NCBI GenBank assembly: GCA_965153455.1
Contig: OZ234493.1
Coordinates: 31,734,213 to 31,798,212 of the forward strand
Reading direction: 5' to 3'
Length of the DNA stretch: 64,000 nucleotides
Source: Sphagnum compactum
Lineage: Eukaryota
In this document: positions 31,501 through 34,500 of the stretch, piece by piece
How the letters are laid out: each line of letters starts with the position of its first letter
Numbering within the stretch: the stretch's first letter is position 1
Made by a program: the position numbers and the translations under genes
The notes under the pieces: generated by a model
Seen by the model: the letters and a program-made list of their open reading frames with translations, nothing else
Databases searched by the model: none
What the model was told of the DNA's origin: nothing

Positions 31501-34500
31501 ATCATCTCCTCTACCACCCTGATGTTTGAACAATCCCTTGAAATGAGTTTTCTCATTCCTCTGCCGTTGCATTGCTGTAGTGGATTAGAGCAATATGCTT
31601 AGATTCACTTTTGGGGGCTAATATACCCACCGGATCCCCATGTTTTCTCTTTCTAGTTGTCTTCACTCATGTGCAAATTTTTGTCTTATCTGGCCAACCT
31701 TTTGGTTTGCAACAACAATCAGAGTGCAATTTCTTAAGCATTTGAGCTGTAGTCGAGATAGGTAGAAGGCATGCATAATTGTGTTCCTCATTATTTCAGA
31801 CCCTGCAACACGTGCACATCAGCTAGTGATTGTTACACCTTTGTCAAGTAGGAGCACTTAGTGCAGTTTGTTGTCCTACCTTTGGACTGACACTGAGGAG
31901 GACTGTTTGCTGTTGTTTGCTTGTTGTTTTCTTGTTGTTTGTTGTTTGTTGTCTTTGTATGCTTCGTGGGTGCGAAAGGCATCACACAAGACATATACCC
32001 TCTTTCCACGAAGCGCATAGGGTGCCTGCCAGGGTGTGAATGGTCGACAAGGAAGTGATGGATTACCTGGTGTTGGTGGATCCTTTCCCATCTTCATCCC
32101 CTCCCAGAAAGTTGTGTCAATGCAATGTTATGCTCTGGTCCTGGTTAAGACTGTTTAGTTTGTAACATTCATGGAAATGTCATTGTTATCCATGTGGGTG
32201 CTTCTTCATGAATTTATCTAGGCATATTGGGAACTGAAAATTGCTGCAGTTCATTAATTCTAGGTTATTTCTGAGATTAGCGTGTCCTACTGTCTTCTTC
32301 CTGACAGATGTCTGCTGGTAGGCTACCCTTGGGTTGAGGGAATGTAGCAGCTCTCCATTTTCAAGTACTTCTTTTGAAGCTTTGCACATGGACGGATATA
32401 CAAGTTTTTTTAATGATGGTTCCTAGATAATGTCTTCTCATATCAGAACGCAGGCCAAGACAGAATGCTATCACATGTCAGTTAATGAGTTACTCACCGC
32501 AGATATCAAATGAAATTTCAGTACTTTGATTGTATTGATCTTATCGCTGTGAATGGGGAATGGGGAATGTCTCCTTAAGATATAGTTCTTATGATCACAA
32601 TTCCCAGCATCCTCCCCAATTGAACTGGGGGTCTGTCTCTTTACTGATTCATAAACTGCATTGGGTTCATGTCAGTGCACTCATTGTAGATGATTATGTT
32701 GCAGGTCAAATTCCAGGGATGCCCCAATCAATGCCAGGAGTATTTCCTGGAATGTTCCCATTTGGTGGCACGCAGGTAAAATGTTTGCACTACTAGTTGT
32801 GCAGTATCAAAATATTTAAATTTGGATATATCTCAGGGTGTAAGGGCAGTTCAATATTTGGCACTTCCAATGTTGTATGCAGTCCCTCTAAGTTGTGGGT
32901 CACAGCAGCCCCACTTATCTGCAATAGTTTCTCAACTTGTTGTTGGTTGACAGTTTGGAGGCATGCCTGCTATGCCAGCACAGGCCATGACTCAACAGGT
33001 GCAGTGTTGTTCCCAGAAGTTAGACAATCTGCCTTGTTTGAATTTTTAGGTAGTGTATACTATGGTATCACCGCACCTTGCATTTGTAGGATTAATGCAG
33101 TAGTTGCAGCATAGGATGGGTGGGCAGTGAATGGCAATGCCAAGATGCATCCTATTGCAAATGTGTTCTTGTTTTTTCTTTCCATTTTGAAGCTTCAGAA
33201 GATCATACTTGCCTTATTGCATTCTGGACAGGCTTTGAGCAATGACATGTAAGTGATTGCCTGCAGGCTACAAGGCATGCACGTCGAGTATATGTGGGGG
33301 GGCTCCCACCAATTGCCAATGAACAAGTGGGTGCTATCTCTTTGCTGCTTGATTTAGGTTGAGATTTTTTTGGTTATAGAGATATTGCAAGGTGTATCAG
33401 CATTTGAAGAGTACTTGAAGCATTTGAGCAAATGTAGCAAAGTCGGAGCAGAGCTTTGATGATTGTGCTTTCTGGGTTTTGCTTGCTAGACAATTGCCAC
33501 TTTCTTCAGTCAGGTGATGGCTGCTGTTGGAGGGAACACAGCTGGACCAGGCATGTGCATCTTTCATATCCCTGTATTGGTCTGTTGTCTTGCAATAGTC
33601 CGTTGCTTGTGTGTTTTTCTTTTTGCATGTCTCCTTTGTGTTCGTTCCCTTCATGTGACATCTATGGTTTGCTCTTGGTTCGTTTCTCATGGTCCTGTTG
33701 AATGGGTGTTTGAGGTGTTTTACTGCACGCTCACATCCTTGAATTGGGGAGGGTCGTGACATTTTGATACAAAGGAGTTTGTAGCTCTTGGGAGTTGGAA
33801 TCTATACCATGTTGACGATACCACTGGTAGAGGCACTCTGGGCTCAAGGAACAATTGCTCTTTAGGCCTCTAGGGGTCCAAATCAATATAGGGTGCACCT
33901 GTTCAGAGAAATGATGGATCTGGCCTGGTGCTACAGGTGATGCTGTTGTGAATGTCTACATCAATCAAGAAAAGAAGTTTGCATTTGTGGAGATGCGGAC
34001 TGTTGAAGAAGCTAGCAATGCTATGGCTCTTGATGGCATCATTTTTGAGGTAGATATATGATTTTACTCCAGTTTCAAAGTTGCTTAGATCATGGGTTAC
34101 AACAATAACTCCTTAAGATGTCACTTCTTGGCTATTGAGAGTGGGTAGTACAATTGCTATCTTTTTTGTCATCTGCAATGCTCTAGGTGGTTGTCCCATG
34201 ATCCAAGACTTGATATATATGAGGACAAGAACACTTATGGGTCATTGTGTGACTTCAACAGGGTGTCTCTGTGAGGGTGAGAAGGCCAAGTGACTACAAT
34301 CCTTCAATGGCAGCAACTCTTGGACCAAGTCAACCTAGTCCACATCTTAATCTTGCAGCTGTTGGCCTAACCCCTGGGTAAGTAGTTACATACTGCTTGA
34401 TCAATGCATAACTTTCAACTTACAGCGACAGTGGAAGAGTAGTCGGATGTTGCAAGATTGTCTTCTCAAATTTCTTATTCCCCTTGTCCTTGCCTTATCC

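Follow-up and report, generated by a model that had tools for sequence, protein, structure and literature searches.

A block of intronic sequence at positions 31875-32099 of a 64,000-nt stretch of Sphagnum compactum DNA (contig OZ234493.1; the whole stretch is hereafter called the window) was analysed. The block lies in the gene for U2AF65, the large subunit of the splicing factor U2AF. In one polyA RNA sample it diverts most of the splicing from the preceding exon to an unproductive path, by way of an internal 3′ splice site at 31977-31978 and an in-frame stop codon. Comparison with a paralogous U2AF65 gene indicates that the block is conserved above the neutral level. We think it likely that the block is a conserved unproductive-splicing module of the moss U2AF65 gene and that it is dose-sensitive in the manner proposed below; the extra exon with its stop probably works as a self-limiting switch, in which feedback would act on the choice of acceptor. 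RNA hairpins, which had been proposed to gate the splice site, are without support and are the least meaningful part of the module.

An internal acceptor in the U2AF65 gene

The U2AF65 gene occupies approximately 30200-37800 on the + strand, where stop-to-stop frames read as RS-rich exons, an exon with SGFDMAPP and three RRM-like parts. About one third of the sequence words sampled from the gene recur in RNA runs labelled 'moss metagenome' or 'plant metagenome', which identifies the source as a moss; four of the 23 runs listed were used here, and the shares of the other 19 (0.32-0.46) carry no weight in what follows. The RRM1 exon (about 33930-34052) matched 13 distinct PDB sequences, every one of them named 'Splicing factor U2AF 65 kDa subunit', with a best E value of 9e-10. 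Reads and contigs were placed on 30650-33350 from X23, a stranded polyA raw-read RNA run with the same species label (516 reads placed of 11.9 million read), from X18 and X22, which are DNA-like contig sets of relatives, and from X3, a moss metatranscriptome. Junctions were listed from a threshold of 3 reads, and statements about junctions rest on 15 of the 16 junction rows. Nearly all X23 read pairs had the orientation of the exons of the gene, and all depth over the intron concerned was on the strand of the gene. The features of the region are as follows.

31268..31335, + strand: exon C, 68 nt, encoding ...SGFDMAPPG... and ending in phase 1, from junction reads and the open reading frame listing
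31336..32704, + strand: intron C-D, 1369 nt, GT..AG, separating the RS-rich exons from those that lead to RRM1
31880..31903, + strand: conserved block with purines, CTTTGGACTG..ACTGAGGA, probably the region of a distal branch point
31904..31958, + strand: U/G-rich tract, 55 nt (T 37, G 14, C 4, A 0)
31977..31978, + strand: AG of the poison 3′ splice site (gcgaaAG/gcatca), the first AG after the U/G tract
31979..32075, + strand: poison exon, 97 nt (91 nt with the donor at 32070), often lengthened downstream by retention
32056..32058, + strand: in-frame TGA, reached after the 31979 acceptor
32066..32099, + strand: tandem donors cctg/GTgttg/GTggat at 32070 and 32076, both used, then a C/U-rich run (tcctttcccatcttcatcc)
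32308..32364, + strand: second internal exon, or 3′ end of a long 31979-32364 exon (acceptor AG 32306-32307, donor 32365)
32705..32775, + strand: exon D, 71 nt, from junctions into 32705 and 32775>32954 (61 X23 reads)

The donor at 31335, where exon C ends, serves productive and poison junctions alike. The junction 31335>31979 was found in 37 X23 reads with 26 start places, and the productive junction 31335>32705 in 3, so the poison acceptor takes 37 of the 40 spliced X23 reads leaving exon C. The neighbouring constitutive junctions were crossed by 31 (30829>31268), 61 (32775>32954) and 38 reads. Exact removal of 31336-32704 is carried by the 3 X23 reads and by one X3 contig (depth 134), and a first-pass annotation, which had placed a 1.37-kb intron here between the RS region and RRM1, was borne out in this respect. 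Since the X3 contig is productive and the X23 reads are mostly poison, both transcript forms exist. Exits from the poison region in X23 were 32075>32705 (6 reads), 32069>32308 (3 reads) and 32364>32705 (14 reads). The X23 depth was 27-60 over 31924-32742, 7-14 over 31378-31923, and 0 in the neighbouring introns. From the junction counts and the depth profile together, most transcripts in X23 are spliced to the internal acceptor, and the downstream half-intron stays in many of them. A transcript-like record of the orthologous gene in a metagenome (L006:1-1270) joins 30778-30829 to 31266-32480, with the upstream intron removed and the C-D intron kept. Loose ends of X23 reads at 32066 (13 reads) and 32099 (40 reads) bear the sequence of the paralogue itself, which indicates that the block of the paralogue and its downstream flank are also present in polyA RNA.

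At three exonic sites all X23 reads differ from the window, namely 30756 (C>T, 51/51), 30798 (C>T, 46/46) and 31319 (C>A, 56/56). The A at 31319 is also found in X18, X22 and X3, so the window has the rarer letter there.

After the junction 31335>31979 the frame reads 26 codons and then meets the TGA at 32056-32058, past the RS-rich part and before all RRMs. Transcripts using the poison acceptor cannot encode the RRMs. Full retention of intron C-D leads to a stop at 31386. A coding extension through another open frame in the region was rejected, the frame being out of phase with every acceptor observed.

A poison 3′ splice site in this intron had been predicted by the first-pass annotation, with the AGs at 32019-32020 and 32031-32032 as acceptors. 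The site is real, heavily used (37 versus 3 reads) and followed by a TGA, but it is located at AG 31977-31978. The joins 31335>32021 and 31335>32033 were absent from 15 of the 16 junction rows (threshold 3 reads), and the AGs predicted thus serve in none of these 15. The AG in use sits inside a 'gc-gaaa-ggc' motif and had been overlooked. Three AGs within the poison exon (32019-32020, 32031-32032 and 32054-32055) are kept in the paralogue, and none has a U-rich run of its own.

The internal acceptor has a better U-rich signal than five other acceptors of the gene, though it is interrupted by G. The last 50 nt before it are 56% T, versus 36% before the productive acceptor and 28-42% before four others. 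The AG-free zone before 31978 is 76 nt long and consists mostly of the U/G tract; at the same five acceptors such zones measure 11-31 nt. The run without A around the tract (31903-31958) ranks third in length among those on the + strand of the window. Further long runs of this kind are 47998-48056 (59 nt), 60295-60352 (58 nt) and 28646-28696 (51 nt), the last close to the 5′ end of this U2AF65 gene. Summed contig depth in X18 at 31924-32014 was 2557 versus a baseline of 125, contributed by many unrelated contigs with TTG-type repeats; because these pile up, the X18 depth over the tract is no measure of copy number.

Conservation of the block

A pattern scan of metagenome contigs gave 13 loci, of which five are orthologues (L001, L002, L004, L006 and L013; 95.4-97.0% identical to the window), four belong to a paralogous U2AF65 gene, and four (L003, L008, L009 and L012) were discarded as chance matches of the pattern with nothing else in common with the gene. 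The paralogue loci represent two distinct sequences (L005 = L011 and L007 = L010) with 7 differences in 404 nt. Besides the exons, the block 31875-32099 is the only part that aligns between the window and the paralogue (79% identity over 230 nt), and a more permissive search of both introns gave no further aligning sequence. It sits about 540 nt into the intron in the window and about 520 nt in the paralogue. Third codon positions are identical at 156 of 244 sites (64%) in eight aligned exon pieces; ten pieces were available, and two were dropped where the match ran into intron with no open frame. Conservation of the block thus exceeds that of synonymous sites. Among the five orthologue loci 0-1 columns differ in 31800-32099, versus 18-22 in 31400-31799 (about 5 per 100 nt). 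Over the block, identity to the paralogue is distributed as follows.

31880-31903, + strand: branch-like region, 19 of 24 positions identical
31904-31958, + strand: U/G tract, 48 of 58 aligned columns identical
+ strand: acceptor region, 24 of 31 identical
+ strand: middle of the poison exon, 32 of 47 identical, the lowest sub-block
+ strand: 3′ part of the poison exon, 22 of 30 identical
32066-32099, + strand: two donors and C/U-rich run, 33 of 34 identical, the best conserved sub-block

The used AG with its flanks (in both paralogue sequences), the in-frame TGA, the GT at 32070, the GT at 32076 and an AG-free zone, 78 nt long there, are all kept in the paralogue. The TGA at 32056-32058 aligns in place and in frame with a TGA in each paralogue sequence, and a second TGA comes after it there. 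The AGs at 32019-32020 and 32031-32032 are likewise retained in both.

Two functionless or coding readings of the site were weighed against these data. Tandem Repeats Finder calls the U/G tract a degenerate TTG-type repeat with periods of 3, 7, 11 and 22, and cryptic splice sites behind simple-repeat tracts are common; a (TTG)n-like repeat could thus have made a cryptic polypyrimidine-like tract whose next AG is used as splicing noise. We find this hardly credible and regard it as close to refuted. The tract is kept, irregularities included, in a paralogue with synonymous sites only 64% identical, while the rest of the intron is unalignable. In all five orthologue loci it is unchanged, repeat length included, amid 0-1 changes in 300 nt, and the site takes nearly all of the spliced reads leaving exon C.

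Alternatively, the poison transcript might encode a short protein, consisting of the RS-rich N-terminus and 26 new residues, which could serve for example as a competitor for U2AF35 or SR-protein contacts. The 26-codon open frame follows the junction in both gene copies and ends at the same TGA. The tails of 26 residues, however, differ heavily between the copies (paralogue tail GIIRGLCPESTMRAGY...), and identity peaks at the splice signals and non-coding flanks (33/34) and is lowest inside the exon (32/47). Because conservation is arranged in this way, the block is better read as an RNA signal than as a coding exon, and the short protein is scarcely probable.

An origin of the block in a repeat or mobile element was rejected. 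The block is single-copy in the window, where the sole other match was one 19-nt chance match, and in 9 of the 13 metagenome loci it occupies the same position of the same U2AF65 intron. Likewise, an intronic snoRNA or other known RNA family is unsupported, since Rfam gave 0 matches at E up to 1 in 31300-32750 on both strands.

Several differences among the orthologues were seen outside the block. L013 and L001 have a 30-nt deletion (window about 32114-32143) which starts about 15 nt past the end of the block, with 31 differing columns in the bin 32100-32199; this deletion marks the 3′ limit of constraint. The bin 32300-32399, with the second internal exon, has 0-1 differences in the orthologues versus 8-9 in the preceding bin, and the exon itself (32308-32364) does not align with the paralogue. 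In the intronic bin 33400-33499 there are 37-38 differing columns in all three orthologue loci covering it, probably reflecting one shared insertion or deletion relative to the window.

The proposed hairpins

The first-pass annotation had described the block as an ordered series of motifs, all of which are present in the window.

31848-31853 / 31874-31879, + strand: arms of a 6-bp stem, gtagga / tcctac, in a region upstream of the paralogue-conserved block
31887-31891, + strand: CTGAC, named as branch-point-like
31961-31969 / 32006-32014, + strand: arms of a 9-bp stem, gcttcgtgg / ccacgaagc, perfect in this sequence and enclosing the used AG
32019-32020 and 32031-32032, + strand: catAG and ccAG, the acceptors predicted
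31950-31955 / 31988-31993, + strand: arms of a competing pairing, tgtctt / aagaca

From these a folding-dependent switch was constructed. Its 9-bp stem would conceal internal AGs and place the tract beside the AG at 32020 or 32032, the competing pairing would mask the tract, and the outcome would depend on folding, U2AF level and temperature. We consider such a switch very unlikely. In its favour, the 9-bp stem is perfect here and forms in the minimum-energy fold of the 91-nt piece 31945-32035, both AGs beyond it are kept in the two paralogue sequences, and the orthologues, being invariant in this part, provide no evidence against it. However, dinucleotide shuffling produced a perfect 9-bp stem with a loop of 3-60 nt in 74 of 2000 cases for the 198-nt element and, for the intron, in 71 of 300 shuffles; 56 such helices occur in the window. 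The 198-nt element (31843-32040) folds with z = +0.61, 148 of 200 shuffles folding at least as well, and its minimum-energy fold does not use the 9-bp stem. For the 91-nt piece z = -0.37. The matching paralogue pieces contain no equivalent stem in their minimum-energy folds (z = +0.66 and +0.85). By inspection a shifted 5-bp pairing CATGG/CCATG is possible in the paralogue; it is missing from those folds.

Pairing was also counted in an alignment of four rows (the window, one orthologue and the two paralogue sequences) with 24 pairs, which holds two divergent lineages and has low power. Of the nine pairs in the 9-bp stem, 5 do not vary and 4 are disrupted in both paralogue rows, with compensation at none. 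Four of the six pairs of the stem at 31848-31879 are unpaired in both paralogue rows, where the region is identical at 18 of 39 positions, and this stem lies outside the conserved block. The competing pairing is weakened or broken in the paralogue by 3 G-U changes and 2 pairs with broken cells. One of the 24 pairs, in the 6-bp stem, changed on both sides; the resulting covariation score was reached by 172 of 500 shuffles, and the paired share of the whole named structure by 61 of 500. RNAalifold found a compensatory change in 0 of 53 predicted pairs. A long pairing of the U/G tract with the purine-rich exon end, which RNAalifold proposed, is G-U-rich and free of compensatory change, and it was set aside.

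The breaks of the stem in the paralogue, read from this alignment, are direct evidence against a conserved gate. Moreover, the 9-bp stem, if formed, would loop out exactly the used AG at 31977-31978 (37 reads), which argues against a gate meant to bypass that loop. The occurrence of the stem itself is at chance level. The covariation check advised in the annotation gave no compensatory support, within the low power of four rows from two divergent lineages. In the comparison of introns the block is conserved in the orthologues and in the paralogue, and the stems are broken in part in the paralogue. Nor did CTGAC hold as a branch point, since it is CTGGG in the paralogue while the adjacent ACTGAGGA is invariant.

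Proposed dose-sensitive splicing and known systems

The reading that we favour is a dose-sensitive module. The conserved purine block (GGACUG..ACUGAGGA) is followed by the 76-nt AG-free U/G-rich zone, and a distal branch site would lie in or next to the conserved ACUGAGGA region, as general knowledge of splicing would suggest. Reads from the normal donor at 31335 join behind the AG that comes first after this zone, the spliceosome probably taking whichever AG it meets first there, and the new exon introduces the TGA just after the RS-rich part. This exon ends at the weak tandem donors 32070/32076, extends to the donor at 32365, or continues to exon D by retention. The G-interrupted U tract may make the site dose-sensitive. 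A rise in U2AF supplied by this gene or by its paralogues, or a U/G-binding protein that competes with it, would shift the choice between 31978 and 32704, and proteins binding the C/U-rich flank could likewise set the shares of the acceptors. The shifted choice would hold the output of U2AF65 steady, in a homeostasis common to the paralogues. No RNA hairpin would be needed for any step.

The poison transcripts probably stay nuclear or escape fast decay. Most of them keep the downstream half-intron, and such a fate would explain their abundance. The abundance of stop-containing, half-spliced RNA suggests nuclear detention, or escape from nonsense-mediated decay (NMD), over rapid decay, and the high share in X23 argues, if anything, for escape from NMD.

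The following points weigh against the module as we propose it. With 25% G, the tract falls short of an ideal site for U2AF65. The branch point could instead be one of the proximal A residues (31959 here and a different one in the paralogue). Depth in the bin that covers 32037-32099 is inflated by paralogue reads that partly fall there. The RNA evidence comes from one raw-read run of unspecified tissue and condition, and its ratio of 37:3 may be atypical. A high steady-state level of the poison form is unusual for a classical NMD target. The conservation covers one moss group, that is, orthologues 95-97% identical and one paralogue lineage. Regulation, NMD sensitivity, nuclear retention and the response to U2AF dose are proposals only.

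The same poison module might instead be set by other RNA-binding proteins, either a U/G-binder competing with U2AF or a pyrimidine-binder (PTB-like or UBP1/TIA-like) on the C/U-rich run, in which case U2AF65 output would follow external cues and not its own level. We hold this to be possible, if unlikely. The best conserved sub-block consists of the donors and the C/U-rich run (33/34) and not of the tract (48/58), and the tract, at one quarter G, would be poor for a pyrimidine binder. Productive and premature-stop transcripts of Arabidopsis U2AF65A switch within hours of cooling, which shows that U2AF65 splicing in plants responds to external control (PMC6033173). Against this, the candidate proteins are putative binders. 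Control by other proteins and autoregulation are indistinguishable here, and both can coexist.

By analogy the block may further be viewed as a dosage sensor for the U2AF heterodimer, common to all U2AF65 paralogues of this moss, an idea that we offer tentatively and think rather improbable. The imperfect, G-interrupted U tract, the distant branch site and the 76-nt AG-free zone would be recognised only with excess free U2AF, and once the site is used, the RNA would be left half-spliced, with its stop codon, and be detained in the nucleus instead of being degraded. If so, the block would be an independent plant counterpart of the Caenorhabditis elegans uaf-1 retention exon, and it would also report naturally on free U2AF activity and on the binding preference of plant U2AF65.

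U2AF65 defines 3′ splice sites, and control of its level affects all splicing. A conserved and heavily used element of about 225 nt is a test object for plant U2AF65 binding, distant branch sites and AG-free zones, and it could show whether nuclear detention, and not NMD, is what keeps the levels of core spliceosome factors constant. The case also cautions that eye-catching hairpins mattered least in the module.

Unproductive splicing of U2AF65 in plants is already known from Arabidopsis, at the other end of the gene. Full-text searches, covering main article texts, turned up no account, in mosses or elsewhere, of a conserved poison module in the U2AF65 intron that separates the RS region from RRM1. 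In a 2025 survey, the annotated U2AF65B models of three bryophytes show alternative splicing that may be this event (PMC12027700).

The premature-stop transcripts described for Arabidopsis U2AF65A arise when intron 11 is retained, when a different 3′ site inside exon 11 is used, or through an exitron, and they switch with cooling (PMC6033173, PMC545797). In both plants U2AF65 output would be set by the balance between productive and stop-containing transcripts. The Arabidopsis events described there, however, lie near RRM3, whereas the moss event lies between the RS region and RRM1, and no common sequence element is known. The first-pass annotation had assumed an alternatively spliced long intron of U2AF65A in this part of the gene, a premise at odds with the events described there.

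In Arabidopsis PTB1 and PTB2, an alternative exon whose stop codon is premature leads to degradation by NMD under auto- and cross-regulation (PMC6033173). The moss element resembles poison exons of splicing-factor genes in being an intronic alternative exon with an in-frame stop, with non-coding conservation above neutral, in duplicated gene copies. It differs from cases of the PTB1/PTB2 type in that its host gene encodes a core 3′ splice-site factor, with NMD and feedback only proposed, and in that the poison form is the majority in one polyA sample and mostly keeps the downstream half-intron. Plant SR genes are a further case of poison exons and unproductive splicing.

For human U2AF1, a preprint proposes autoregulation in which exons 3a and 3b are included together, with NMD as the result (bioRxiv 10.1101/464404). 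There too, a U2AF subunit is proposed to limit itself by unproductive splicing of its own pre-mRNA. The human case, however, involves the small subunit and coding exons duplicated in animals, whereas the moss module is intronic and non-coding.

Within the same gene family, exon 3 of C. elegans uaf-1 is, by analogy, the nearest counterpart. It is said, after work of MacMorris, Zorio and Blumenthal in 1999, to carry repeated copies of the 3′ splice-site consensus and to hold its transcript in the nucleus. The moss exon resembles the exon so reported as a stop-containing alternative exon in a U2AF large-subunit gene, with cognate-looking 3′ splice-site signals and an abundant transcript. The moss exon differs from it in that it appears to be without an array of full consensus copies and contains three conserved AGs without tracts of their own, and the two exons are of independent origin.

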